From positions 1 through 64,000 of the forward strand of contig KZ538427.1 of the NCBI GenBank assembly GCA_000934665.2: a stretch of DNA of 64,000 bases, in the 5' to 3' direction. Both the position numbers and the translations under genes were made by a program. Positions within the stretch are counted from its first letter, which is position 1. Each line of letters starts with the position of its first letter. This document shows positions 36,756-53,486 of this stretch, piece by piece. This DNA comes from Catajapyx aquilonaris (taxonomy: Eukaryota). Below the pieces are notes generated by a model. The model had not been told where the DNA came from and searched no databases. It saw only the letters and a list, made by a program, of their open reading frames with translations.

Positions 36756-39051
36756 CCTCCCTCCCTCTCCAGGGCCGCAGTTTCCCATTTCATGGCGGCT
36801 CCAGATGCCGCTTGCTCATTTCGCCACTCAACTTTTCTCTTTTGGAGGAAATACACTATGAAACGAGGGAAACCGTCTCGCTTTTATCAAATCTTTAGCG
36901 CACTTGAGTGCTGAGGGCACACATTTAATGGACCGGTAGCTTGCACCAATATTGGTTATTCAGGCGCTCAGAGTGGAACAGAACAACAACTCTCATAAGT
37001 ACACTTGGGAAAAATGATCTACATGTCCACATTGCAGGTGTGGCGCATCCTACTCTCTGCTGCATATTACTAATAACTTCCATGATATTTCCGGCCACAG
37101 GTTTGACCATTAGCAGATACTGTAGTGCTTCGCTAATACCTAGCCATGAGACGTGATCTGTTGCAATTTCAATGCAATCTAGTAGCCAGAAACATTTACC
37201 TATCCTGGCATATCATAGGGGCAAAATGAAGAAAAGGAGTCGTACACCACAACAACATCCTGAGGTGCCCATATACCAATGGAGATCATGAAGTCAAGCT
37301 AACTCAGAAGGTGTGTTAGTTGGTAGCCCCAATGGTGGTTACTCATCCAGTATGTATGCTGTGTTGCAATTGGTCACTTGAGTGGATAAGCATTATGGAT
37401 GCATATTAAGTACTGGCAGTTTGCATGGTATAAGTTATTATTTCTTCCTATTCAGCAAAAAAGAAGTTGGTAAGTCCGAATTTCTCCAAAAATCTTCTGT
37501 AACAGCTTACAAAATGGCCACTAGTCCATCTCAAAATTGACTTTTTCTCAGATTTTGACATCACACTTAACAAATTTCAAATTTGAACAAAGGAATGTCT
37601 GCAGTCATCAAACAATAAGTTTGGAATCCCTTGGCATTTGATTTAAAAAAACCAAATGGGTTGCAATGTTGTGCAACATGCTACACACACTATCAGGATT
37701 TTTTTGTTTTTTTAAACTGGTGATTGAGCAGGCACTAAAATTCTTCATACCAAATTACTTGGAAAGTAAAAGCATATGGTTTGATACCTGCAGATCCATG
37801 GCACTTTATCCCCTGCCAAACGAAAATTAATCCCATTATTTTATACCCACATTATTCCTGCATATTGTTAGGCATTATAATCGAGTACTTGTGCAGTACA
37901 TAATATTATGTCACCACTTTTCACACCCTCACAACTCATGATCTCCCTTCATGTGTGTACACCTCCACAGTAAATATGTTGGTTTCTTCTAAGGCCTGGT
38001 TGTACCACCACAGGTACAGTTGGAAATCATGAGTTTGATATTGTTATTAATTGTTGGGGTTAATGGACCCATTATGAACACAAACCTAATATTTCAGGTA
38101 AACTTTCGATGTCACCGGATCCAAGAGAGCTGAGACTCTAAAACATGGTTTCAATAATGAAATCAATCACATGTCCCGAAATTATTGCTGAACAGCTTAT
38201 ACAAACTTTCTGAAATCACCTCTGCAAGTGATACCGAAGTCCCTAAATTTTTCTCTGAACTATCAGAATACAACAGGCCACACGACTCGAGCAGATATTC
38301 ATTACACAGATGCATGCATCAAGGGAGACTCTTTGCAGTAAGTTCCAGTACTTACAAAGCACATTGATGGAAGCAGCAAGACTGGTCAGGGAGAATCCAG
38401 AAGATACGTTCATAGCAATGCAAGTGAACTCTCCAGCATCTCTCTCCTTGTCCACCCGGGTGATCCTCAGGTCGCTACCCACCTGGTGACGCCTGGTAGT
38501 GTTAGGAAGTGACTTGCCATTCAACTGCCAATAATAGGTGATGAAGGAGCTGTTGGACACCATACACTCCAGAGTCACACTTTTGCCTGAGACCACCACC
38601 GCATTCTGGGGCTGTTTGCTAAAGTAGAAGTTGTCGTGTGTCTGCCCTCCCACCTCACCTGTGTGATTAAACAATATGTAGATTAGATTAATTAACATCA
38701 TTGGTTGGCACACATTAATAATGGAGATGTGGTGACTCATATGTCTCCCCCCTTCCCCCTTACACACACCCGTTTCCCCCGGTATTATCCGGCCATTCAG
38801 ACTTTTATCGAACCAGAAGGGAGAAGAGGAAGCTGCTTCCCCAAATCGATACTTAAAAAAAAAGAGAAGTCATATGTGCCCTCGGATGTCAAATTTGAAC
38901 AAAGCGCGGGACCACTACTAAAGCTAGGTAATAGTATAAATGCCAAGAGAAAAGACTCACCGGCGACATAGAGGATGGCAAGCACGAGGGGCAGAAGCAT
39001 GGGGACAGCTCCGCAACCGGCGCCCATCATACCACGCCCTCCGAGGTCCAT
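2296..39051 (-). CDS. PTK7: Inactive tyrosine-protein kinase 7 / off-track-like receptor (7 Ig + TM + pseudokinase), 3' exon(s) outside the window
   Basis: GT-AG exons with mutually consistent phases: 39051-38961 (signal peptide MDLGG...LAILYVA), 38658-38356, 13813-13687, 13004-12844, 12455-12311, 10919-10777, 10716-10420, 9094-8807, 8187-8075, 8017-7861, 7804-7657, 7600-7473, 4565-4374 (TM ...AAAGYMVLVIGLMVWCRYR), 3805-3345 (GKGEMGEVF, VMVKSL), 2568-2296 (HKDLATRN, KVSNP in place of DFG). Total 3027 nt = 1009 open codons. The kinase C-lobe exon is not seen in 1-2295. Confidence 0.93.
4600..4900 (-). mobile_element. tRNA-derived SINE in PTK7 intron
   Basis: Minus-strand head tggtctagcgg / ggttcaaatcc, (AAT)n tail, 13-bp TSD caaaaatattatt (4587-4599 / 4901-4913). 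Confidence 0.85.
5426..6615. repeat. Foldback/hairpin element with ~155-165 bp near-perfect inverted arms, interrupted by the THAP element
   Basis: 5426-5578 is the reverse complement of 6463-6615. The arm continues past the insert (attaggcaga 6411 / tctgcctaat 6455). Confidence 0.85.
5579..6410 (+). mobile_element. THAP-domain non-autonomous DNA transposon (ISL2EU/PIF-Harbinger-like)
   Basis: TIRs ggggctggccag...gggcaattgtg / cacaattgccc...ctggccagcccc with AT on both flanks. THAP motif from ATG 5871: CAVPGC..HSFPKD..W..CKKH. No transposase catalytic domain. Confidence 0.7.
6660..7180 (+). mobile_element. Possible Helitron/Helentron (DINE-like) fragment
   Basis: CpG-rich island in a CpG-poor intron, ending in the GC hairpin gcgccgc-ttc-gcggcgc (7152-7169). 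The aaatcg...cgcgagttatga motif is reminiscent of DINE-type elements. Confidence 0.35.
9322..9995. mobile_element. Mariner-derived foldback element with HTH transposase remnant
   Basis: ~250-bp imperfect inverted arms (9327-9575 / 9740-9993) starting tgttcaaatgaaac. Plus frame FLIREGIAPVDIVHWMQKVHGNVCFNRKTLFKRCREFLSRRVCLEDLSR resembles the mariner N-terminal HTH. Confidence 0.75.
18941..18962. other. Assembly gap (22 N)
   Basis: Run of n. A smaller run lies at 30158-30163, and isolated n occur in homopolymers. Confidence 1.
36696..36769. repeat. (CT)n microsatellite
   Basis: Directly visible dinucleotide run followed by (CCCT)n. Confidence 0.95.
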
Positions 39052-39477
39052 CTCACGACTGACTGCGAGAGCCGGCAAGAGAATCGGCTCGATGCCCGAA
39101 CCCGCCACCCACTCCACCTCGCCTGATTATCCCCACCACCACCGAGCACCCCCTCCTGTTGTAAACTCAACAAGCCGCCAAAATCGGAGGGAAGTCGAGC
39201 CAGCCATCTAGCGGAGATAGCTTGATAATACTGCAGTGGCGCAGTCTGTCGTAGATCCTCCTAATGTCATACTACAGGCATTCCAAAGATACTGTCCCAG
39301 AACACCACTTTATTTGCATCATATATGGTTAATTTTGCTTTTGCCTAAAGCAGTAAAGGGACCCTCAACTTGCATAAGAGGTGATCTGCTCTGTCCGAAT
39401 ATATCTCAGCCATTTTCATGCATATTATTTGATATTATTTTGATATTATTTATCACAGTTTAGTTTTCATTGCCAGA

Positions 39478-39851
39478 AAAAAAACAATCATCATATCTTA
39501 GAGAACAATAGCAACACATAGATCCCCTTTAAAAAAACAATCATCATATCTTAGAGAACAATAGCAACACATAGATCCCCTTTTAAAAAAACAATCATCA
39601 TATCTTAGAGAACAATAGCAACACATAGATCCCCTTTTAAAAAAACAATCATCATATCTTAGAGAACAATAGCAACACATAGATCCCCTTTAAAAAAACA
39701 ATCATCATATCTTAGAGAACAATAGCAACACATAGATCCCCTTTAAAAAAACAATCATCATATCTTAGAGAACAATAGCAACACATAGATCCCCTTTAAA
39801 AAAACAATCATCATATCTTAGAGAACAATAGCAACACATAGATCCCCTTTT
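39478..39851. repeat. Minisatellite, 7 x 53-54 bp
   Basis: Unit aaaaaaacaatcatcatatcttagagaacaatagcaacacatagatcccctt(t)t. Copies differ only in T-run length. Confidence 0.95.
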
Positions 39852-39960
39852 CCAGCAACTCATAGCTTAGAGAGTGCTTCTCTAACAAGATTGGTATGGG
39901 GAAATCTGTAATTGGCATATTATGTACCGGTATGTATCACTCATAGCAGGAGTGGCAGAC

Positions 39961-40110
39961 GTATCATCAGCAGTTCAGAAAGAATTGTCCCAGTCATCCT
40001 GATGTGTGTGCTGCCCGCTCGACACACACCATGTAACTTACATGGTGTGTGTCGAGCGGCCAGCCCACACGTCAGGATTACTGGGACAATTCTTTCTGAA
40101 CTGATGATAC
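39961..40110. mobile_element. 150-bp palindromic MITE-like hairpin
   Basis: gtatcatcag...ccatgtaa-c-ttacatgg...ctgatgatac, with arms ~75 bp and few mismatches. Confidence 0.8.
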
Positions 40111-40124
40111 AAGCAGTCAATACC

Positions 40125-41987
40125 TTAGATACCGGTATTGCTGGTATGCAACTTCTTGTGCCTCATTAAATATCTTTTCTGAGTATAGCTCTTATTACAC
40201 TCATTGCAGCCAAATGGTCTGTCTCCAGTATGCAAAAGTGTATGCCTTTGCAAACTGCTTTTTGAAGCAAACTTTTTTTCACACACAGGACAAATGACAA
40301 ACGGTTTTATATCTGTGTGCTGGGTTTGACGATGGAGATTGTAACTGCTGCGGTGACCGAACTTCGTTCCACATGTTTCACAAACATGTAGCTTCAGTCC
40401 TGTATGAGTATTCCAATGCGAATGTAATTCGCGCTTCCTTCCAAACATTCTGTTGCACAATGGGCAGCAGTGAGGTTTGAGCTTCAAATGTACGATTTTG
40501 GTATGCTCACGTAATCCAGCAGCCGATGTGAATACTTTCTCACATGTGCCACAAATACGTGGCTTTGCTTTGCTGTCGAGTTGAAACTTGCTCTCACCAC
40601 CTACAGCACTGTTTGTCGGAAGTCCTGGCCACATTATCTCATCCTCTTCATCCTCTTCCTCACTCAAATGAATCGAGTCCTCAACTTCTGCTGGACTGAT
40701 TATCTTCCCAGCATTGACTCCACCTTGAGTAGCCACACTTTCAGTTGACACATAACCAAGTTCCACTTGGTCATCAGTTGACAATCCATCAGAGCTTATA
40801 GGGGAGCCTGAAAATATATAGCATAGCTGTAAGGTCAAGAATGCACAAATTGTGGACACTTGTTTTCCTGAAGGAGGAAATAATGTTACAAAATGAGGTG
40901 AGAAGTCTAAAGGCCGAGGGCCATCTATTTTTTCAGGCACTAAGATTTTTGGTAGAAAAGGTGCTTATTAGTGTGAATGAAAAATAGTGAAAGACACATG
41001 ACTGCAAAAAGACAAAAATCAATGGAGACCCAAGGGTCAAAATACGCCACAATTACAATTCGTATACAATAATACAATAATTGTATTACAATTTTGCAAA
41101 TGAAATAATTAAACTTCAGAGAGATGACAGAGTTATATGTATAGGAATTTTAATCTTAACTTTTCAAAGCAATGGTAAAATTAATCATAATTCATAGAAG
41201 TGCACGTTGCTTAAACCTTAAATACAACTACCCATATGTTTAAATATCTGCATCTTCCACCTTCCAATCTCTTTCTGCCACATTTTAGAGTTATATATAT
41301 ATATATATATATATTTTTGTAATTACCCCGTAATGACCGTTTAAGGGTCTTGAGGGGAGTGGATTACCACCATGTTTTTCAATTTTCTTCTTCGATCTCC
41401 GTGCAAGGATTTGTTCAGGATATAGGGAAGGGAAAGGGATTGTTGGGGAGGGGACAGTTTGTGCAGGTGCATTGTCCAGTCTTTGGGCCATGTGCAGTCC
41501 CCCAGGAGGTTAGGTTGCCAGACACCTCCTTTGGTGCAGGTCAGAGACCCTCCCGACGCAGGTGAAAGGAAGTTCCCCAGGCGGGGATCGAACCTGGGGC
41601 CTTTCACTCAGCAAGCCGAGACGTTACCATCTCGGCCACCACACCTCCCCGAGTTATAATATATTTATAACATTGATCATTCAAAAATTTAACCCATGCC
41701 CCTCACTGTATTGTCCCTTTCGGTCCCTCTTTTGCAATTCTGACTTCCATTTTTCTCATTCATACTACTATGCACTTCTTCCTCAAAAATCTTAGTGCTT
41801 GGAGCAAAATAGACATTATACAGACTGCTGTACAAAACGCCTTACCTTCTCTTTCCTCCGATAATTCCTCCACCTGACAGTCCTCGAAGTTGCCCTCCGG
41901 ACATACGGTCTTCCGTCTCACGTCGTCTATCTCCTCCATCTGATAATTCGAGCATCCGGCCATCTCTTCCGAAGCAGGGAAATCCAT
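40125..41987 (-). CDS. C2H2 zinc-finger protein, 274 aa, acidic N-terminus plus 5 tandem fingers
   Basis: Exon 1 41987-41846 (MDFPASEEM...EERE-G, donor gtaagg, phase 1) joins exon 2 40807-40125 (acceptor ttttcag, G|GC-TCC) in frame. Five C-x2-C-x12-H-x3/4-H repeats with TGLKL/TDIKP/TGDRP linkers. Confidence 0.85.
41296..41650 (-). mobile_element. tRNA-derived SINE in ZNF intron 1
   Basis: Minus-strand head tggccgagatgg / ggttcgatcc, (TA)n tail, short TSD gagttata. Confidence 0.8.
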
Positions 41988-44136
41988 ATTCTAAGCCGGG
42001 GCAAGAGCTTGCCGGGGACAGGAACTCTTCGCCCAAACTGGCAGGAAGTTAGTGAGGATCGAGGGATTCGAAACGACAGGAAGCTAAAATAATAACGCTT
42101 GGATAGAGGCGGATAAAATTAGCTGACTAAAGTTTAACAGTCATCTGCGAGAGGCAACTCACACTGTGTTCCACTCTCAACCAAAGATGCCCTCAACTTG
42201 AAATGGAACGCGTTCCGGTGGCTGTGGAATAATCTGTTTAGAGGATAGTGCTGCCATCTTCTGAGCGTCTCTAGCATTACTGCCGCCCTACCGTATCAAT
42301 GCAACACCGTATTGTACATATGCGTCATATGCGGTCATATGCGTTTGAAAGAAAAAATGTTAATATTTAGGTGCAGCAGTGATTAATGCTCTAAATTATG
42401 ATACTAAAGGCCGGTTGCATCAACTCAAGGAGGAAATGATCATCCCCAATATTATGTCAGATTATGTATAGCCTACCAGTGTATTATGAAACCATACACT
42501 GCACTGGTCTGGATTCCCAATAATGGCATACCTTGTTCCAGACACATTCATAGTGTTTTCCCTGAACATGGTAAGTAAAGCTGTTATTATTTGTAAAATA
42601 TCTTGTCCATATTTTTGGAGTACGCTTAAGCCAAAATCTACGTGGTTCGGGCCTATCTGGTAGCAAAGGGGTTAATGCTCAGTTTAATGTGCTTGCCAGA
42701 CTATCTGCACCATAAAGGTAATAACCAATTAACCACCCATATCATTCATTTGCAAGTGCTGCAAAAATATGCAAAATATAGTTGCTTGTGAGACAATAAA
42801 CCTGTTTCAGCATTGTATCATTTTGGTGGTCATTGAGGACTACAGTGGTTCCTCTTACTTCGAACTGATTTCGTTCCAGGAGGTCGCTCAAGCCCGGAAT
42901 TGTTTGTAGTCCGAATTAATTTTTTCCATGAGAAATAATGGAAAGTGAATTAATCTGTCCCCAGACCACAAACAATACTTATTTCGATCAACTTAAACAG
43001 CAAATACACATAAAGTAAAAATAACACAATTCCCTAAAGGCCTATATTAAAACATGAAAACAAAATATATGTAAAGCAAAAAAAAAGCACTGAAAACACG
43101 CAAACGTAACGCAAAAGATGCTTTCACAGTGAGAGACGGCTTCGGCACATGACATATGGCACTTACGCAGCAAGGACATTATAAAATTGCACACACAGTA
43201 CAAACTTAGAAGCATTGTTGGACTACCAAGCAAGTCTCAGCTTTCAAACTATGGAACATTTGAAGTTAGGGTCATTTTGAAAGAGGTTCCACAAACAGGA
43301 AATAATGAAAAATGACCCCACTTTGACAGCCCAAGTGAAAACCAAATATCTTCGAAAATCATGTAAAAGGAGATAAATGCACCATTGCACTCCTCTTTGC
43401 AAGCCAAACCTTTTTGGCACAAAGCCCGTAATTGCAGGAGCAACCCTTGCAAAGTTTTGGCCAATTGAAATCGTGCACTTTCATATACGATAATGGAAAC
43501 AAATAACTTCAAATGCGAATAGTATCTTGAAATGACAAAAAGCCGAGATACAGGGTTTTCTCTTGGGCCGTCAGACTTTGTCTGGCTGACCCCCTGGGGT
43601 GTACCAGTCCTCTGGTTGACCTAGTTTTATGCCATCTTGCCAAAGAATGCGCAGAAATATGGTAGTTTTTTTTTGGTTTTGAATACATATCCAGTGTTCT
43701 TCTACCCCTTGATTGGGAAAAAGAGCAGTTTAAAAAACACATTCCTGCAGATATTGCATTCAGCGCAGAAGTCAGCAATGCTTGCTTTGATATTTTCATA
43801 TCGACAGTGACTTCCAGGTTACCCTGTTGTCATGCACAACTCTCATAATACATTCAGTTCCTTTATTCAATTTTTGTCACACTATTGATTACTTAACCCT
43901 TAACTACGTAGGTGGAGCCTGAGAGGCTCCAAGCACTATTTAAACGCATGTAACTTTTTCATTGAATTTTATTTTCCCCTGTCCTTCTGTGACTTTGTCA
44001 GATAAACCTTCCTAAGCATGGAAAGGAAAGAAAATTTTTTTTAGTCCCTATTCTTTGGGTTAAAAAAATTCATAACGAGGAACAGGTCCCTCCTGGAACC
44101 GCTCAGGCTCTATATCTCGTAGGTGAAGGCTGAGCG
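41762..44136. repeat. Left arm of ~2.4-kb inverted segmental duplication
   Basis: Reverse complement of 48330-51012. Paired near-identical ORFs in the track, e.g. 43042- / 49518+, 42484- / 50093+, 41760- / 50787+. Confidence 0.97.
42841..43000 (+). mobile_element. Tc1/pogo (Tigger-like) MITE left end, mirrored near 49755-49913
   Basis: TA-CAGTGGTTCCTC terminus followed by ttcgaac...cgttccag...ccatgagaaataatgg. Confidence 0.45.
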
Positions 44137-44367
44137 GCTCAAGCATGATGTAACCTTTTAATTAAAATTTTTTCCCTGTCGGAATATGCTGGCTCAGCGT
44201 GTGATTTTTACGTTTTCGGAAGCCTAATGATCTGAACTGCACTTTTTGTATGTGAAACGTCCAATATAACAATTTAGTTGATAAGCAGAAATTTAAATAT
44301 ACCGTTGGAGCCTCTCAGGCTCCACCTACGTAGTTAAAGGTGTTTCGCCCACCTACGTAGTTAAGGG
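43897..44367. mobile_element. piggyBac-like non-autonomous element (471 bp)
   Basis: TTAA on both sides (43893-96, 44368-71). 19-bp TIR cccttaactacgtaggtgg / ccacctacgtagttaaggg plus subterminal repeats. Half copy at 48339-48573. Confidence 0.85.
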
Positions 44368-44371
44368 TTAA

Positions 44372-44680
44372 CAGAATACTTCATGCATTGCAGTCGTTAT
44401 GGTTAACCAAGTCTACGCACACATTGTTCATCATGAAATAACCAGCCCTTCAGTCCAGTCGCACTATGATTGATAATGTAACAGAATATTTCATGCATTG
44501 CAGTCGTTATGGTTAATCCAGTCCACACACAAATCATTCGTCATGAAATAATCAGCCCCTTCAGTCGAATCCCACTATTATTGATTACTTAACATAATAT
44601 TTCATGTATTGCAGTCGTTATGGTTAACCAAGTCCACGCACAAATTGTTCGTCATGAAATAACCAACCCTTCAGTCCAAT
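44372..44680 (-). repeat. Three ~110-bp tandem copies of the SLX1 stop-codon region
   Basis: ttcatg(c/t)attgcagtcgttatggttaa...tcatgaaataa(c/t)ca(g/a)cccttcagtc recurs at ~44380, ~44490 and ~44600. Confidence 0.85.
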
Positions 44681-45753
44681 CAGTGTCCATACGTCCATTT
44701 TCAACATCAAGTTCTCTGTAACCACCTTTTTTCTTCATAATCAAGTCACCCCACAGCATCTCTGCCATGCAAGTAGGACAATTTCCCAATACTGGAATTA
44801 AGTATGAAGTATTCTTGACAAATTGCTTTGCCAGGCATATTATGTGGGATTTAAAATTACATGTTGGTTGGATACACTCAATTTTTTCTTCAGGGTTAAT
44901 ACTCAGGTGGCATAAACCACAAATAAAAGATATATCCCCATGACCACCAGCAGCTGGTAAAATCTTCTTTCTCTTCACAGTTCCTTGTGCAATGGGCATG
45001 TGAATTGGGGGCTGCATATTCACCTGAAATTGAGTTAACTATAAAACACTGTTCTCTGTGGTTAAGATAAGAAAAAAAAATAGTCCTGTTGGTTCTGAAA
45101 CCTACCGGAAATTCAAGGGCGTATTCTGGTTTAAGCCATCGGATAGTAAGGGGCATCTGAAACCAAGGGCCTACACGCAGCATTTCAGTGAGAACCCGAA
45201 AGCAGAATTTGAATCGAGTTTCTGAAGTGCGTTTCTTCGCCACATGCTGTAGTCGTCTGGACCTGTGAGGATGTTGCCACGCCCATTCAAACTGAAAAGA
45301 AATGCTACTTGGTCACACAGAAATCATCCTTGATACCACGTTAACCTACCCGCAGTGCTGATATTTCATTGGGGAAACCATGAACAATCAGAACCATTTC
45401 CCTGCAGCAGACATGGACATGATTTCATTAATACAAAATTCACAATTACAGCAGTTGGTATGTAGCCTATAGTGCTGACCAAAAAACAACCGGTGAAATA
45501 TGCATCAATTCGATGATTCTATGCATTGCGCATTATCACTGTGAACAAATCCAGCCATTATTTACCATGGTCCTTTGTTGCTAGTCCTGCAGGCTCCCCC
45601 CGCCTTCCGGCCCTTGTTGTGCTGCTTGATCCGCCGGTTGGGATCCACCGTGAACCCGATGTACGTACGGCCCTTGTACTTGGGATTGGTGCAGTACAGC
45701 AGGTACACCCCTCGGAAGTCCTCCACGTCCACCGAGGGGGCAGGGCCAGACAT
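44652..45753 (-). CDS. SLX1: Structure-specific endonuclease subunit SLX1 (GIY-YIG + C-terminal RING/PHD-like finger), 265 aa
   Basis: Exons 45753-45566, 45401-45350, 45291-45106, 45023-44652 (798 nt, in frame). Motifs [50 protein letters not shown]-x2-C...HIICLA...[11 protein letters not shown]...WGDLI. Confidence 0.95.
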
Positions 45754-46554
45754 TGCTTGCTATTTGGGAGCTGGGAGGTCGTGTCAGTCGTATCTCGTGT
45801 GGTGGTCTACCAGTATTGATCGTAGTCTCGCACACCGATGGGGGTGATCGGGCGACAAACTGACAAAGGAATGACGGGATCAGGGGATGACATCATCCGG
45901 CTGCCCAGCATCCGGTGAAAAAATCAGTCCGCGCATCACAGTTATAACCACAGAGTAGTTATAACTAGACTGTTGAAACTCCTCACAAGCTATATAACAG
46001 CCTTGCGAATCGGATCTTCAGGAGATTCCGCATTGTCCGTACGGGAGTGGGTTGACAATATTCTCGCATACGTCTCGAGATAAATTGTACGTTCGTAACT
46101 TAATTTACACCAAACGTGGGCCTAATACTAAATTTAAAAATGGCAAATAAGCTGCGTTGGAGAAAGCTGTTCCCGGTGGGGCACACATAACCGTTTTTTC
46201 AGCTTTAATAGCTACAATGACATTCAGCAATGCCAACCGAACATTGGATGTCAACTACTGTGATGCCAACTGTCCTGCAACATTTGGCAAATATTTTCGA
46301 GAAATAAAAACAATGAATGAAAAGTCTGCTGCAGAGTGTTTGCCGGGTTTGCCTGTCAATAAATGCATGAAATATATCCTAAATCCTTGCCTAAATCACA
46401 ATCTGCAAAATGTGACGCACCGATACACCCAGATGCACCCACCTTGAATACTTGATTAACTTATGGCTGTTTTATTGAGGGCTCTGAATTTATATAAATA
46501 TACTCTTATACTCTTATTACCACCTGTTACCACCAAGTTACCACTTACTTATTA

Positions 46555-47171
46555 ATAATATAATCATAATAATAATCCTGGGTAGTGCTTGACCTCATCT
46601 GAGGTATGCAGCACACACCTTTATTTATTACATCAAGTACATTTGAGCCTTGACTTGATGAGCCTTGATACTTGACCTCGCGGAATGACTTGCTCGGCGC
46701 CAAGTAGCGGCTAGCTCGTCATGACGAGGTCAGAAATTGAGACTTGACCTCGCGCAATGACTTGCTCGGCGCCAAGTAGCGGCTAGCTCGTCATGACGAG
46801 GTCAGGAGAATATTTGACAGCCGCGAGGTCCCGCGACGTGGCGGCTATCCTGAGGCGAGCTCGCCAGCTTCTGGCGACCTAGCGGCAAGCTCGCGGCTAT
46901 GTTAAATTTTGGTAAGGGTTTTTACGTAGCGCCCGGGCCCACGGGCAGGATGACAGGAAGGGATGTGTAAGGTGCAGTGCAATGTCTTAAGTGGCCATTT
47001 TTAGTGAACTCCCCCGGGTGGTATATAGTCTGCGGAAATACCACCCGAGACGAAGCCAGATAAGGTGACCCTGAACTCTGCATGAGATGAAGGGGGTGTC
47101 CCCGGGTTGGAATCGAACCCGGGACCTTAACATCCGTGGACGCATACGTTACCGCAGCACGTTGCCTCCCC
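46555..47171 (-). mobile_element. Composite SINE with an internal hairpin-repeat segment
   Basis: 14-bp TSD ccacttacttatta (46541-46554 / 47172-47185). tRNA-like head at ~47100-47171 (ggttcgattcc on minus). Internal 72-bp tandem pair at 46671-46805. Confidence 0.7.
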
Positions 47172-47727
47172 CCACTTACTTATTATTAGGCAAAGATATA
47201 TGTTTGAGGGATACATAAAAGCATTTAGTTAGCATACTTGAAACTGCATGTTAATTTTCGTCAGCTTGGGGCAATATCGCAGAAAGGGGCCCCCGCATCA
47301 ATACGATTTAAGTGTAGCTGCAAACCCTTGCATGAATTCCCCTGAACTGTCAGGCCCCAATAACTCGTCCTTTGTATGAGCTTCTCTCCCAATGGCAAAC
47401 AGGTCAGTGTCAAACTTTCCATCTCCAAAGCCTCCCTCGATCCCTTCCAGCTCACATGGAGTTTACCACTTATCCATCTTCTCTGGAACACAACGGGTCA
47501 TAAACCTGGTTCCTCTGCGCCTGATATGCATGGCATTGTCAGTCACCAGGTGGGCCATCTCCTGATCAAACCCATGCAAGGGGATGCAACAAAGCATAGC
47601 CATAGTTTAAAAGCCAGTCCTGTTACATAGGAATCCAGCACACTCCAGGACCACATAATTATATCTGTTGTGTATTATAAGAATAAAGAGGCTAGAACTT
47701 TTCCTGCATCTTTATCCCAGTCAACTT

Positions 47728-48009
47728 TTTTTTTTTTTAAATTTACCCCGTGAATGACCTGTTAGGTCTTTAGGGGGTGGTGGATTACCACCATTGGTAT
47801 TTTGGAGCGTGTTAAGATAAAATCTTATTAGTGTACTCCAGGGTTGGTAGGAGGGGATGTGCAAAGTGCATGTGCGCTGTCGTTAATTGGTCATTTTGTG
47901 AACTCCCCCGGGTGGCTTAGTCTATCGGAAATTGCCACCCGAAACGAAGCCAGAGATGGCCCAACTCTGCACGAAAGAAGGTGGGAACCCCGGGTGGGGA
48001 TTGAACCCA
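47728..48009 (-). mobile_element. 5'-truncated SINE (same body as 46990-47120)
   Basis: Poly-T (reverse poly-A) end. 14-bp TSD atcccagtcaactt (47714-47727 / 48010-48023). Confidence 0.8.
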
Positions 48010-48011
48010 AT

Positions 48012-48338
48012 CCCAGTCAACTTAGTGACGTCCCAGAGACGTCCACGTTTAGTCCGTTGTGGACGTATTGGACGTCTCCAGAATGGGACGTCATTGGACC
48101 AAGACGTCCAGAAGACATGCACAAGATGACGAACGACCTTATAAAGGGACCAATTTACAATGAAAAGACATCCGGTGGACATCTTGTTCATGTGATATGT
48201 GGACTTTAAAGATGTCCATTGGACAACACTCCAGGTCATGCCGGGGATATCAAGGGGGTGTAGGGGGTCATAATAAGATGCCCGGAAGATGTCAGTAATG
48301 TTACTTTAGGACGTCTTTTAGACTTCTCTCGCTCAGGG
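48012..48338. mobile_element. GACGTC-repeat element with CCCAG...CAGGG ends (foldback-type, family uncertain)
   Basis: Repeated (g)gacgtc(c)/gatgtc motifs at roughly regular spacing. Starts cccagtc and ends gctcaggg, directly against the duplication arm. Confidence 0.5.
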
Positions 48339-51012
48339 TTCACCTACGAGATATAGAGCCTGAGCGGTTCCAGGAGGGACCTATTATACTCGTTACGAAT
48401 TTTTTTAAACCAAAGAATATAGGGACTAAAAAAATTTTTCTTTCCTTTCCATGCTTAGGAAGGTTTTTCTGACAAAGTCACGGAAGGACAGGGGAAAATA
48501 AAATTCAATGAAAAAGTTACATGCGTTTAAATAGTGCTTGGAGCCTCTCAGGCTCCACCTACGTAGTTAAGGGTTAAGTAATCAATAATAGTGTGACAAA
48601 AATTGAATAAAGGAACTGAATGTATTATGAGAGTTGTGCATGACAACAGGGTAACCTGGAAGTCACTGTCGATATGAAAATATCAAAGCAAGCATTGCTG
48701 ACTTCTGCGCTGAATGCAATATCTGCAGGAATATGTTTTTTAAACTGCTCTTTTTCCCAATCAAGGGGTAGAAGAACACTGGATATGTATTCAAAACCAA
48801 AAAAAACTACCATATTTCTGTGCATTCTTTGGCAAGATGGCATAAAACTAGGTCAACCAGAGGACTGGTACACCCCAGGGAGTCAGCCAGACAAAGTCTG
48901 ACGGCCCAAGAGAAAACCCTGTATCTCGACTTTTTGTCATTTCGAGATACTATTCGCACTTGAAGTTATTTGTTTGATTGTTTCCATTATCGTATATGAA
49001 AGTGCACGATTTCAATTGGCCAAAACTTTGCAAGGGTTGCTCCTGCAATTACGGGCTTTGTGCCAAAAAGGTTTGGCTTGCAAAGAGGAGTGCAATGGTG
49101 CATTTATCTCCTTTTACATGATTTTCGAAGATACTTGGTTTTCACTTGGGCTGTCAAAGTGGGGTCATTTTTCATTATTTCCTGTTTGTGGAACCTCTTT
49201 CAAAATGACCCTAACTTGGGGCGACACGGTGGCTGAGTGGTTAGCGCCACAGCCTTCCACCTCTAAGGTCCCGAGTTCGATCCCCGGGTCGGACGGAGGA
49301 TATTTATGTGGATAGAGTTTCGATGGGTTCTCTCCGTGTTCGCGTGGGTTTTCTCGGGGGTCTCCTGTTTCCTCCCACTATCAAAATCCATCACATTACA
49401 GGCAAATGATTAACGTCGGATATTCAAAAGATGATCCCCTAAGAGGCCCAAGGGGCCTATCACGGGGTATCCATTATGACCCTAACTTCAAATGTTCCAT
49501 AGTTTGAAAGCTGAGACTTGCTTGGTAGTCCAACGATGCTTCTAAGTTTGTACTGTGTGTGCAATTTTATAATGTCCTTGCTGCGTAAGTGCCATATGTC
49601 ATGTGCCGAAGCCGTCTCTCACTGTGAAAGCATCTTTTGCGTTACGTTTGCGTGTTTTCAGTGCTTTTTTTTTTTTGCTTTACATATATTTTGTTTTCAT
49701 GTTTTAATATAGGCCTTTAGGGAATTGTGTTATTTTTACTTTATGTGTATTTGCTGTTTAAGTTGATCGAAATAAGTATTGTTTGTGGTCTGGGGACAGA
49801 TTAATTCACTTTCCATTATTTCTCATGGAAAAAATTAATTCGGACTACAAACAATTCCGGGCTTGAGCGACCTCCTGGAACGAAATCAGTTCGAAGTAAG
49901 AGGAACCACTGTAGTCCTCAATGACCACCAAAATGATACAATGCTGAAACAGGTTTATTGTCTCACAAGCAACTATATTTTGCATATTTTTGCAGCACTT
50001 GCAAATGAATGATATGGGTGGTTAATTGGTTATTACCTTGTATGGTGCAGATAGTCTCGAAAGCACAGTCATTAAACTGAGATTTAACCCCTTTGCTACC
50101 AGATAGGCCCGAACCACGTAGATTTTGGCTTACGCGTACTCCGAAAATATGGACAAGATATTTTACAAATAATAACAGCTATACTTACCATGTTCAGGGA
50201 AAACACTATGAATGTGTCTGGAACAAGGTATGCCATTATTGGAAATCCAGACCAGTGCAGTGTATGGTTTCATAATACACTGTACCTTGACTGTACTGGT
50301 AGGCTATACATAATCTGACATAATATTGGGGATGATCAATTCCTGTTTGAGTTGATGCAACCGGCCTCAAGTATCATAATTTAAAGCATTAATCACTGCT
50401 GCACCTAAATATTAAACATTTTCTTTCAAACGCATATGACGCATATGTACAATACGGTGTTGCATTGATACGGTAGGGCGGCAGTAATGCTAGAGACGCT
50501 CAGAAGATGGCAGCACTATTTTCTAAACAGAATATTTCACAGCCACCGGAACGCGTTCCATTTCAAGTTGAGAGCATCTTGGGTTGAGAGTGGAACACAG
50601 TGTGAGTTGCCTCTCGCAGATTATTGTTAAACTTAAGTCAGCTAATTTTATCCGCCTCTATCCAAGCGTTATTATTTTAGCTTCCTGTCGTTTCGAATCC
50701 CTCACCAAGCTCTTGCCCTCACTAACTTCCTGCCAGTTTGGGCGAAGAGTTCCTGTCCCCGGCATACTCTTGCCCCGGCTTAGAATATGGATTCCCCTGC
50801 TTCGGAAGACATGGCCGGATGCTCGAATTATCAGATGGAGGAGATAGACGACGTGAGACGGAAGACCGTATGTCCGGAGGGCAACTTCGAGGACTGTCAG
50901 GTGGAGGAATTATCGGAGGAAAGAGAAGGTAAGGCGTTTTGTACAGCAGTCTGTATAATGTCTATTTTGCTCCAAGCACTAAGATTTTTGAGGAAGAAGT
51001 GCATAGTAGTAT
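48330..51012. repeat. Right arm of the inverted duplication (contains an extra SINE)
   Basis: Reverse complement of 41762-44136 apart from scattered substitutions, small indels and the 49218-49475 insertion. Confidence 0.97.
49218..49475 (+). mobile_element. Full-length young tRNA-derived SINE
   Basis: tggctgagtgg / gagttcgatcc boxes. 13-bp TSD atgaccctaactt (49205-49217 / 49476-49488). Empty site in the left arm at ~43263-43275. Confidence 0.92.
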
Positions 51013-52586
51013 CAAGAGCATGAACCGCAGCAGCCCAGTGCTTCCTTCTGCCTCTCCAAATGTGTCAATTGGTCCACACTAAAGCTGCTTGTCTTGCCTG
51101 ATTGCCCATTGTCCTATCAATGTGCATCTAATGGGCCATAATCTTAAGAATATTTGCACGCAAAAATAGTTGTGACGCGTCCGAATTGATTTCGAGCAGG
51201 GAGTCGCGTCCGAATTCACATCAGCCTTCCAAGCATGCTCAGAAGCCTGGTTTGAATCCTTATGTTCCTTTCATTACATTTCAATTGCTCTTTCTGTACA
51301 TACCGGGTTCAGTACACCTTCTGTCAGTCATGTCTGATCGTAGCCAGAGCCAGTCTAGTCTTGTGGAGGAAAAGATCATACCAGGTGAGCTACACTGTGA
51401 ACCGCAAAACCATTAAAAGAGCGCTTTGGAATGCTCTGCGGTTGTTTTTTAGCTCTTTTAATGGTGTGCGGTTTACGGTGTACATTATAATGGACACAGA
51501 GTCTCAGTACAGTAACTCTCATGTGTGTACTCAGGGAGCCGGGATGAGCTGAAATGTGGACAACCAAGTGAGACTTGCCCGCCACGTGAAAAGGTCTAAA
51601 TTAATTTAAATTATTCCTTCAGGTACGTCCCATGGTTTCCGCTGCGATAGGCCTGCGGTGTTGAAGGCTGCGACAGATGCGGTCAAGGCAGGAGGAAGCC
51701 AAGGCTCCAAGACTGGATCGTTCGTCCCGTCACCTAAAAGTGTCAAGTTCAGAGTCGTGCCTGCTGGGCCTACATGCGAACGACGGGAGAGGCCAAGCAT
51801 GTACTACCCTTCTGTCAAGCTTAATGATGGACGAGAGGTGTACTATGTAAGCAATGCAGGTACAGCATTGGTGGTATTTTAGGGTCACTTATTTCACCCA
51901 TTTTATTATAGAAGCCAATACGTCCAGTGAAAGTGCTGTTTATGAAGTACCAGAATCACAAAAGGATCCCGAAGTTTTTGCTGACAACTCGGAAGTAAGT
52001 GTCAAGGTAATTTTCGACAAGGACATTTATTAGGACTGTCCCTGAATTGAAGAGAGGTGATTGGAAGTTTACGACAATGAGATCAATGTAAACATAGAAA
52101 TACCGTATTACTTCTGCGCTAACTTTGCAGTTAGAGCAACAGAAACTAATTAAATTCATGCTTCTGAAAGAAAAGAAAAAAGTGTCCGTGATGGTACAGT
52201 ATGACAAAAAATCGAATACGAGATTGGTATAACCAAGAATCATTATTATTTTATAAGTAATAATAATAAAATAAGTAATCCCTGGTATAACCGCCGTGCA
52301 ATTAACTACATAATTCGTCATGTAAATGCCCTGACAGTTATTCTGTTCAAGTAGCAAACTCCAGCTTCACTCATCATTATCAGTGCCGGTTTCACCAAGC
52401 CCGGTTTTTATGAAAACCGGGCTTGGTGAAACCGGCCCTATGTCAGCTTAAGTATAATAAGTCTCCTCTGCAATACCTGAATAATGTATATAAATTATCT
52501 ACCACATTTCCTTTCAGGAAAATGGCTCCACTCAAATGAAGCAAGATTGTCTCCAGGAAGAAGTTGACCACGGAGCCCAAAAGTGA
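50787..52586 (+). CDS. Putative multi-exon gene of unknown function (147 aa from ATG 51330, or 195 aa if it uses the duplicated zinc-finger exon 1)
   Basis: Exons 50787-50928 (duplicate of ZNF exon 1, phase 1), 51328-51384, 51623-51859, 51912-51994, 52518-52586 (TGA). All boundaries are GT-AG, phases 1/1/1/0 match and there are no internal stops; ATTAAA at ~52647. No domain recognised. Confidence 0.55.
52385..52436. repeat. 52-bp palindrome (minimal Harbinger-like MITE)
   Basis: gccggtttcaccaagcccggtttt-tatg-aaaaccgggcttggtgaaaccggc. Confidence 0.8.
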
Positions 52587-53369
52587 AGAATAAGTCTTCA
52601 CAACTTGTCTTGCTTAAATCATGCTGCAATTTTATATCATGGCACCATTAAAGGTGTGGCACAATACAGTTTTAATTTAGTACATATTTTGTGTTAGCTT
52701 GTGGCTCCCGTCATTCCTGACTACCCCTTTATATGGAAATGTTGTGATGGTGCTGTTGTTGTTGCACATTGTAAATCAATTTTTTAACCAAAATCTCATT
52801 GCAACTCTCATGTACACATAAATGAAACTCAAAGTTGGCTAACAACTGAAGTAAGGACATACCTTATAGGTACAACTAGTACTACATGTTTTTCTAAAAA
52901 ATCTTGAGCCTGCATGGATGCTTACAAAATACAGTTACTTTTAAGGGAAAGCATATTTGGGCATACCACAGCAACTTGCCAGCAACTAGAAAATCAATTC
53001 GATTACCTCGCACTTGTAACAAGTGTTTTTTCTCTTTCAAGTGGTTGCCAGAATGAACAAGCACTAGTTTTAACATCCACTTCCTCTTGAACAGTACCGT
53101 TGGCTTTTATAACACCGCATGACTTATGCTTGGTCAACGACTTACAATGATCAACAACAAATGCAACTAATTTGTATGTCCATCAATCGTCACTAAGAAA
53201 AACTTACAATCGTCTGATCACAGTTGGTGCTAAAACTGGTTTTAGCAAGTGAGGAGAACCCTGTTGATGCTCACACAAAGCAAGTCCTAATAAAACGCAT
53301 GTGTGGGCTTCCTTCTCTGTTGAAAGTCATGATCAAAATTTTCATGTTTATTATGACTATTAGGTATAT

Positions 53370-53486
53370 AGTCTGGTGACCCGGGGTAGCTTGCCCCCTG
53401 GGGTAACTGGTTGTTTACTGCTATCCTCTTACATATGCTGCCATGGTGATTGCCCCCGGGATAGCTTACCCTGGGTCACTAGACTA
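53370..53486. mobile_element. Short MITE
   Basis: Inverted ends agtctggtgacccgggg / ccctgggtcactagact. Confidence 0.55.

Follow-up and report, generated by a model that had tools for sequence, protein, structure and literature searches.

An in-frame chimeric transcript from the duplicated 5′ end of a zinc-finger gene in Catajapyx aquilonaris

An in-frame chimeric transcript exists in a 64,000-nt stretch of the Catajapyx aquilonaris genome (contig KZ538427.1, positions 1 to 64,000; referred to here as the window). It was found in one contig of one run that we infer to be RNA, and it joins a copy of the first coding exon of a C2H2 zinc-finger gene (ZNF) to a downstream exon. A first-pass annotation made from the letters of the window had proposed that the copied exon 1 splices in frame onto downstream exons, and the contig, with its GT..AG intron, bears this out. 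With modest confidence, we interpret the locus as a young partial duplication with recruitment, the product of which is most likely a recent, little-constrained chimera.

The transcript was recovered from X5, a single public run from the same organism, with a sample and study other than those of the DNA runs. Record 31 of X5 is a 580-nt contig with a depth of 6.45 and is identical to exon 1 in the right arm of an inverted repeat, where the copy lies. Its pieces, 50681-50926 (letters 25-270) and 51621-51846 (letters 271-496), abut with 0 other letters and 0 gaps, and the GT..AG skip between them is equivalent to the junction 50928|51623. The intron removed in the contig is 50929-51622 on the plus strand (GT at 50929-30, AG at 51621-22) and spans both the end of the right arm at 51018 and the segment 51328-51384, which had been annotated as the second exon of the fusion. 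The acceptor proposed for that exon (ag at 51326-27) is present, but the proposed junction 50928-51328 is not the one that the contig uses. Since the skipped exon is 57 nt long, the frame is kept despite its loss. Within 50681-50928, the contig matches the right arm at all seven mismatch places that distinguish the arms and at a 10-nt indel. At 50765, 50766, 50794, and 50810, the X5 letters are those of the window, with a depth of 0 out of 6.45 for any other letter. A graph misjoin would be unexpected because the two sides of the junction have no 30-mer in common. No other copy of the tail, the part that follows exon 1, was found in the 64-kb window at the DNA or the peptide level.

Several features suggest that X5 is RNA. 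Depth was present in 20 of 30 bins, whereas every DNA run had depth in 30 of 30. Of the eight X5 pieces listed, six fall on exons of ZNF, SLX1, or the chimera, and the other two fall on a high-copy repeat. The 5′-UTR intron of the copy (50602-50680, plus strand; gtgagt ... ttttag) appears to have been removed. The contig begins 24 nt before this intron and its letter 25 corresponds to 50681, while the depth of 0.33 over the 467 nt of bin 50141-50607 equals 24 nt at the depth of the contig (0.33 x 467 = 24 x 6.45). The exon that carries ATG 50787 (50681-50928, plus strand) is covered by record 31, again with no other letters and no gaps. The start site probably lies within the copied promoter.

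The inverted repeat measures 2.4-2.7 kb, and its arms, 41755-44136 and 48330-51018, lie on either side of the SLX1 gene. The left arm contains the SLX1-ZNF intergenic sequence and runs through the ZNF upstream region, the 5′-UTR intron, and exon 1 into intron 1, of which it includes about 90 nt; the right arm is the inverted copy of this segment. SLX1 (44342-45885, minus strand; Pfam SLX1_C, 1.6e-17) lies in the unique center between the arms and has X5 contigs on three exons. Ten of 12 inverted pairs join 41759-44068 to 48402-51015. By blastn, 41755-43275 corresponds to 51018-49476 with 95.0% identity over 1556 columns (gaps counted), and 43263-44136 corresponds to 49217-48330 with 96.4% identity over 889 columns. 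In a global alignment of the arms, 50 of 2369 aligned columns are mismatched (2.1%) and 14 gap runs occur; one tract of about 540 aligned columns has a single difference. The presence in the right arm of the ZNF upstream region, the 5′-UTR intron, the 142-nt exon 1, and its gtaagg donor was confirmed by alignment, as was the annotated arm end 84 bp into the intron: mismatches begin at 51013, 84 nt in, and similarity stops at 51018 (90 nt). A SINE-like insertion of 271 nt (49218-49488), flanked by a 13-bp target-site duplication, is found in the right arm only, and the corresponding left-arm site is empty. A second copy of this element lies at 57367-57627 (93%). With the SINE in one arm and an empty site in the other, the two arms are distinct loci that have evolved separately, and the insertion is later than the duplication.

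These data bear on the possibility that the right arm is an assembly artefact, for instance from the joining of two haplotypes or of an inversion polymorphism, and that there is no chimeric locus. Among the contigs listed, no DNA contig bridges an arm boundary. The DNA contigs of sample S1 stop at 51012 and are unable to phase the arms because, over 50197-51012 and 41762-42562, they mix letters from the two arms (X2 record 15, X3 record 18). However, X5 is an independent sample in which right-arm letters are spliced to the 51623 exon, and splicing in cis needs the right arm beside the tail. In addition, the arms differ by the clean SINE insertion with its target duplication as well as by the 14 gap runs, an 816-nt contig (X1 record 7) is identical to the right arm, and no N runs are found near the arms (none between 30164 and 58528). 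We consider an artefact highly improbable.

The original exon 1 of ZNF is located at 41846-41987 on the minus strand (142 nt, phase 1, 47 codons plus 1 nt). Exon 2 (40125-40807, minus strand; acceptor ag at 40809-40808) encodes five C2H2 fingers and the stop codon, and the complete ZNF protein would measure 274 aa. The paralogy is partial: the arms end 84-90 nt inside intron 1, and the finger exon was not copied. The copied exon 1 extends from ATG 50787 for 142 nt up to 50928, with the gtaagg donor at 50929. Compared to the original (41987-41846, minus strand), exactly two differences were counted, and these are the amino-acid changes F3S and E8D that had been noticed previously. Pfam fingers were found only in 40128-40805; exon 1, the exon that begins at 51623 (exon B), and the last exon matched no families. 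Judged from its sequence, the chimeric product would have no C2H2 finger domains and would fall outside the C2H2 zinc-finger proteins. X5 had no cover at the original exon 1 (bin 41735-42201), which was not counted as evidence. Protein homologue searches with the exon 1 peptide and with the ZNF non-finger region returned six and 12 candidates, respectively, none of which scored. A metagenome scan with the non-finger region gave 341 pattern matches and one locus (L001). This locus was rejected, as it aligns over one short word-rich stretch only and has no DNA similarity to the window; from its aligned letters, we read it as a bacterial ribosomal-protein-like stretch that matched by chance.

ZNF is probably the parent of the copied exon. 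Two observations support this polarity: the exon-2 ORF has no in-frame M before residue 111, and exon 1 has a clear coding signal, with codon usage in the true frame scoring -4.04, compared to -4.45 and -4.15. The reverse is that exon 1 and the tail form the old gene, from which ZNF would have acquired its promoter and first exon as a copy. The structure is symmetrical in this regard, since in each arm exon 1 splices, in phase 1, to a downstream exon that is unique. However, ZNF is left with no other start, as there is no M before residue 111 and no candidate first exon was found in the non-duplicated part of its intron, whereas the tail has a candidate start. Exon 1 and ZNF exon 2 also share a clear coding signal that the tail does not have. 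We consider this reversed polarity quite unlikely.

With ZNF as the probable parent, the reading frame was followed into the downstream sequence. The ORF is continuous from ATG 50787 to 51846 across the junction. In the form used in X5, exon B is 51623-51846 (plus strand), and the contig leaves the genome at 51846, before a GTAAGC donor. This exon had been annotated as ending at 51859, but the 13-nt extension (51847-51859, plus strand; donor gtacag at 51860) is absent from the contig. Candidate exon C (51912-52006, plus strand) keeps the frame only if the donor at 51860 is used; from the donor at 51847, the frame reaches TAA 51996. The candidate last coding exon (52518-52586, plus strand) ends in TGA, and two X5 contigs there represent two alleles at 52546 and 52551. 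The full annotated chain (50787-50928, 51328-51384, 51623-51859, 51912-52006, and 52518-52586) is open to TGA 52586 as claimed, but its 600 nt encode 199 aa rather than 195, and the part after exon 1 counts 152 aa rather than 148. Beyond 51846, the 3′ half of the ORF has three readings, giving 180, 150, or 144 aa, the last of which would come from a splice to 52518, and the X5 pieces listed stop at letter 496 of 580. One of the three frames of exon B is open, and this is the frame set by exon 1. A given frame was stop-free in 4.4% of random 224-nt pieces of the window. A 74-codon open frame in the needed phase, a 4.4% event in random sequence, is a point in favor of a coding role for exon B.

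That exon B's one open frame is the needed one, at a 4.4% chance, would also be expected if the tail were an established small coding gene with its own promoter and first exon (ATG 51330-51384), to which the duplication added a second promoter and N-terminus. The segment 51328-51384 (plus strand) is a candidate for this first exon, since it contains ATG 51330, 18 open codons, and a strong donor (gtgagc at 51385) and has the phase of exon 1 (phase 1). At genes with alternative first exons, an upstream first exon splices past a downstream one to the first shared acceptor. Because first exons have no acceptor, a transcript from upstream would skip 51328-51384 and enter at 51623, and this skipping of an internal first exon is the textbook splicing prediction. 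The two X5 contigs on the last coding exon are also consistent with an established gene. On the other hand, 11.6% of shuffled sequences contain a comparable candidate first exon, and the sole X5 contig at 51328-51384 joins across it. Unlike ordinary alternative first exons, the upstream one here is a recent copy from another gene, and the downstream one is a candidate only. The tail itself also argues against an established gene, as it has no credible homologue among 1.84 billion proteins and no Pfam family, the codon usage of its exons B and C scores no higher in the reading frame than in the other frames, and all six variants listed are non-synonymous. We regard an established tail gene as possible but doubtful.

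The searches for relatives of the tail covered proteins, an atlas, Pfam families, and metagenomes. One match among 1.84 billion proteins (E 7e-5), a 3275-aa PKD_5-repeat protein, was rejected as a repeat-inflated chance match, and an atlas search with the tail provided no usable match. The exon B peptide gave 49 candidates against longer proteins, none of which scored, and a metagenome scan with exon B gave 593 pattern matches and no relatives. Pfam returned no family for the tail in a scan that was run exon by exon and that could miss a family needing several exons together. The annotation of an unrecognized tail without fingers held. The missing homologues are weak evidence because the protein libraries, in which the exon 1 peptide and the ZNF non-finger region also drew blanks, seem to be without C. 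aquilonaris and species close to it. For exon B, a single-sequence AlphaFold2 model (mean pLDDT 42.2) was too poor for a fold search. Exon B contains a short K-x-V-x-F motif, which resembles phosphatase-1 docking motifs but is too short to be meaningful. Rfam had 0 matches in 40000-54000, and ARAGORN found 0 tRNA genes.

Codon usage was scored with a model trained on 878 codons from this window only, and a coding signal was detected in six of six known coding pieces. Exon B scored -4.25 in frame, compared to -4.22 and -4.44, a value below 86% of open non-coding pieces. The non-synonymous fraction expected at random for the tail-exon variants is 77.5%, compared to the six of six observed among those listed. 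In these tests, of which the codon-usage and variant tests are small, the predicted tail shows no sign of an established coding gene. Constraint on the chimera is probably weak. Of the newborn chimeric gene proposed in the first-pass annotation, the spliced transcript was found, but signs of protein-level constraint were not, given the variants and the lack of a codon-usage signal.

In the young partial duplication with recruitment that we favor, about 2.4 kb from the 5′ end of a C2H2 ZNF gene with two coding exons would have been duplicated in inverted orientation. The copied segment comprises the upstream region, the 5′-UTR exon and intron, and the first coding exon, together with the first 84-90 nt of intron 1. 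It lies on the far side of SLX1, with an unrelated exon 0.6 kb downstream. The copied promoter probably still works, and its transcript would lose the copied 5′-UTR intron. Because its own partner was lost, the copied donor at 50929 would pair with the next strong downstream acceptor, 51622. The two exons share phase 1, so that the stretch of 47 acidic ZNF codons continues in frame into at least 75 further codons without fingers. The downstream exons may be recruited sequence or a very young orphan unit, rather than an established protein-coding gene. A bolder reading is a gene caught at birth, in which the fusion is translated and under selection, the tail exons have no coding history, and parent and child are outward-facing twins in a 9-kb palindrome around SLX1 with arms that are still exchanging sequence, as the tract of about 540 aligned columns with one difference would indicate. 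We consider this unlikely; if it were true, F3S and E8D in exon 1 would be the first adaptive steps.

Partial gene duplicates with recruitment are a class defined by Katju (2012, PMC3449122), with examples such as Hun from Ballchen in Drosophila and fog-2 from ftr-1 in C. elegans. As in that review's account of the class, part of one parent was copied here and the frame was completed by sequence from the new neighborhood. In the class, this sequence has no other donor; here, none was found in the 64-kb window. In contrast to that account, only 47 codons and the promoter were kept, the recruited part amounts to at least 75 codons, and the copy is an inverted one close to its parent. The review's warning that polarity needs an outgroup applies equally here (PMC3449122). 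In the D. simulans complex, Hun is described as a young chimeric gene on the X chromosome (Arguello et al. 2006, PMC1463047). Like the Catajapyx chimera, it is a young DNA-level partial duplication in which the coding region took up flanking sequence and the transcript acquired a new structure. Most of the parental coding sequence was kept in Hun, which gained about 33 residues by recruitment and a newly evolved 5′ UTR, whereas in Catajapyx the promoter and 5′ UTR of the parent were copied as well and recruited sequence makes up the larger share. Hun is backed by expression and selection data, and the Catajapyx chimera by one contig (PMC1463047). A 2014 study reported that a copied gene 5′ end commonly recruits formerly non-coding sequence as its 3′ end, with 143 and 96 cases (PMC4069613). 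Those cases are described as tandem and mostly polymorphic, in contrast to the inverted repeat found here, which surrounds a third gene, SLX1, and has outward-facing twin promoters.

Partial duplicates that recruit adjoining sequence are known by the hundred in flies and worms, according to these sources (PMC4069613, PMC3449122). The chimera is unsurprising in kind and belongs to a well-known route for new genes to start. A young chimera whose parent, copy, breakpoints, and spliced transcript all lie in one short stretch is a useful test case. From such chimeras it can be learned how the copy of a promoter and exon 1 comes to be joined to new downstream exons, and with what frequency the frame is open before selection acts.

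The right arm (48330-51018) of an inverted repeat around the SLX1 gene was found to hold a copy of the 5' end of ZNF, a C2H2 zinc-finger gene whose original exon 1 lies on the minus strand in the left arm (41755-44136). As the first-pass annotation had described, the copy includes the ZNF upstream region, the 79-nt 5'-UTR intron (50602-50680), the ATG at 50787 and the 142-nt exon 1 to 50928 with its donor intact, and exactly two letters differ from the original, giving F3S and E8D. The exon 1 difference of 1.4% (2/142 nt) is not distinct from the arm-wide 2.1% and, therefore, indicates no special conservation or acceleration of the exon. Similarity between the arms stops 84-90 nt within intron 1. 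Shortly upstream of the 5'-UTR intron, both arms carry aagatggcagc (50504-50514; 42264-42254), which resembles a YY1-type core promoter motif.

Five public sequencing runs overlap this region: four DNA runs from one sample and a fifth, X5, from a different sample and study, whose kind is unrecorded. The runs were mapped onto 39400-53400 in 30 bins. X5 had depth in 20 of the 30 bins, compared to all 30 for the DNA runs, and of its eight listed pieces, six fell on exons of ZNF, SLX1 or the copy and two on a high-copy repeat. From this partial coverage and the exonic placement of 6/8 pieces, we infer that X5 is RNA. One X5 contig, record 31 (580 nt, depth 6.45), consists in part of two pieces, 50681-50926 and 51621-51846, that abut in the contig and each match the window letter for letter and without gaps. 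AG can be placed on either side of the join, which is therefore equivalent to 50928|51623, and the skipped stretch has GT at its start and AG at its end. The first piece begins at the 5'-UTR acceptor and covers every one of the seven mismatches, as well as the 10-nt indel, by which the arms differ there; X5 also agrees with the window at 50765, 50766, 50794 and 50810. Because all of these match the right arm, the RNA originated from the copy. The first 24 letters of the contig probably lie just upstream of the 5'-UTR intron, as if it had been removed, since the summed depth of bin 50141-50607 (0.33 x 467) equals 24 x 6.45.

Thus, the core of the proposed newborn chimeric gene, a copied exon 1 spliced in frame to downstream sequence, was borne out, but the predicted junction 50928-51328 was not, and a working gene is unsupported. 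The contig bypasses the proposed exon at 51328-51384, which is 57 nt long, so the frame is kept. It leaves exon B (51623-51846) immediately before GTAAGC and not at the proposed donor at 51860. The originally predicted five-exon chain is indeed open to the TGA at 52586, but encodes 199 aa rather than 195. Three readings remain for the route after 51846, the final 84 of the 580 letters being unplaced among the record 31 pieces listed: the donor at 51847 joined to 51912 (candidate exon C, 51912-52006) gives 150 aa with a stop at 51996, the same donor joined to 52518 gives 144 aa ending at the predicted TGA, and the donor at 51860 gives 180 aa. The candidate last exon (52518-52586) is covered by two X5 contigs, which represent two alleles at 52546 and 52551.

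Of 12 inverted pairs detected in the window, 10 belong to this large inverted repeat, with blastn matching 41755-43275 to 51018-49476 and 43263-44136 to 49217-48330. Global alignment of the arms gave 2.1% mismatches (50 of 2369 aligned columns) and 14 gap runs. The divergence is patchy: it reaches 3-6% in 4/5 of the 200-column blocks over 41955-42723, near the promoter, and falls to one mismatch in 539 aligned columns between 42724-43262 and 49431-50030. This near-identical tract suggests, from the alignment, that the arms have undergone gene conversion or have recently exchanged sequence, and it is conceivable that recombination between them could invert the SLX1 centre. The biggest gap corresponds to a SINE-like element of 271 nt in the right arm (49218-49488); a 13-bp target-site duplication brackets it, and the corresponding site in the left arm is empty. 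Each arm is thus a distinct locus that has had its own history. Neither arm has an N run nearby, and an assembly artefact, in which the right arm would not exist as such, is very improbable. The inner arm ends (44100-44140, 48330-48366) lie within a short hairpin-like high-copy repeat with DNA depth in the thousands, and a repeated element may have been where the inner breakpoint arose. Just beyond the left arm end is a very high-copy element (41268-41734, core about 41500-41660; summed DNA contig depth above 100,000) that looks tRNA-like, yet ARAGORN made no tRNA call there.

Another explanation is that a small gene already existed downstream and the duplication supplied it with an alternative promoter. 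In favor of this, the tail, comprising everything after exon 1, has its own first exon candidate (ATG 51330, strong donor, phase 1), and such a candidate arises in 11.6% of shuffles. Exon B is open in one of three frames, namely the one dictated by exon 1; among random 224-nt pieces of the window, 4.4% are open in any one given frame. On the opposing side, the six variants listed within the model's tail exons, in a table with 23 further rows, all change amino acids, compared to a random expectation of 77.5%. Trained on 878 codons from neighbouring genes, a codon-usage model ranked the true frame top for exon 1 and for 6/6 coding pieces held out from training, but for neither exon B nor exon C; 86% of open non-coding pieces scored higher than exon B. 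The tail showed no Pfam families, no match to longer proteins, and no relatives in a protein atlas or in metagenome contigs. Its single match among 1.84 billion representative proteins, 33 residues of a 3275-aa PKD-repeat protein, was repeat-inflated and was rejected. ZNF's own unique parts likewise gave no match in the same protein libraries, so these libraries seem to lack the organism's relatives, which makes the absence of tail homologues weak evidence. A single-sequence structure model of exon B had a pLDDT of 42. We consider a pre-existing gene unlikely, at perhaps a minority share of the probability. Two short hairpin-forming inverted repeats in the tail-unit introns (51391-51482 and 52382-52439; 88% and 93% complementary) look like miniature transposable elements.

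ZNF is probably the parent of the duplication, because no other start is available to it and its coding signal is shared by exon 1 but absent from the tail. Its exon 1 runs from the ATG at 41987 to 41846 (142 nt, donor gtaagg) and its finger exon starts at 40807 (acceptor 40809-40808; stop 40125-40127), both on the minus strand. The predicted product has 274 aa and five C2H2 fingers, with a Gly codon formed at the phase-1 junction. No in-frame M precedes residue 111 of the open frame in exon 2, and no alternative first exon candidates were found in the unique part of the ZNF intron. The reverse polarity, with the right-arm locus as the source, is correspondingly doubtful. Introns in this eukaryotic window are short, and its other minus-strand features are an Ig-domain exon (38246-38869), the SLX1 endonuclease gene (SLX1_C, E 1.6e-17) and an F-box/LRR gene (55729-56944). 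Tandem arrays occur at 39425-39857 (period about 53 nt; a 113-nt unit in seven copies in register) and, inside or beside the SLX1 3' end, at 44336-44667 (period about 110 nt, three copies). A long AAC/GTT-type triplet run (57557-57866), whose open frames on the two strands encode poly-N and poly-L, adjoins a second SINE copy (57367-57627).

In the reading we favor, a young local inverted partial duplication would have placed a working promoter, together with a first exon of phase 1, at a new site. The orphaned donor would then pair with the next strong acceptor, the frame across the new junction being open by happenstance. This matches the class "partial duplication with recruitment" of Katju (2012; PMC3449122); the closest examples are Hun (PMC1463047) and the cases of recruited sequence described by Rogers et al. 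(2014; PMC4069613). The kind of event is thus already known, and the chimeric locus is directly open to testing.
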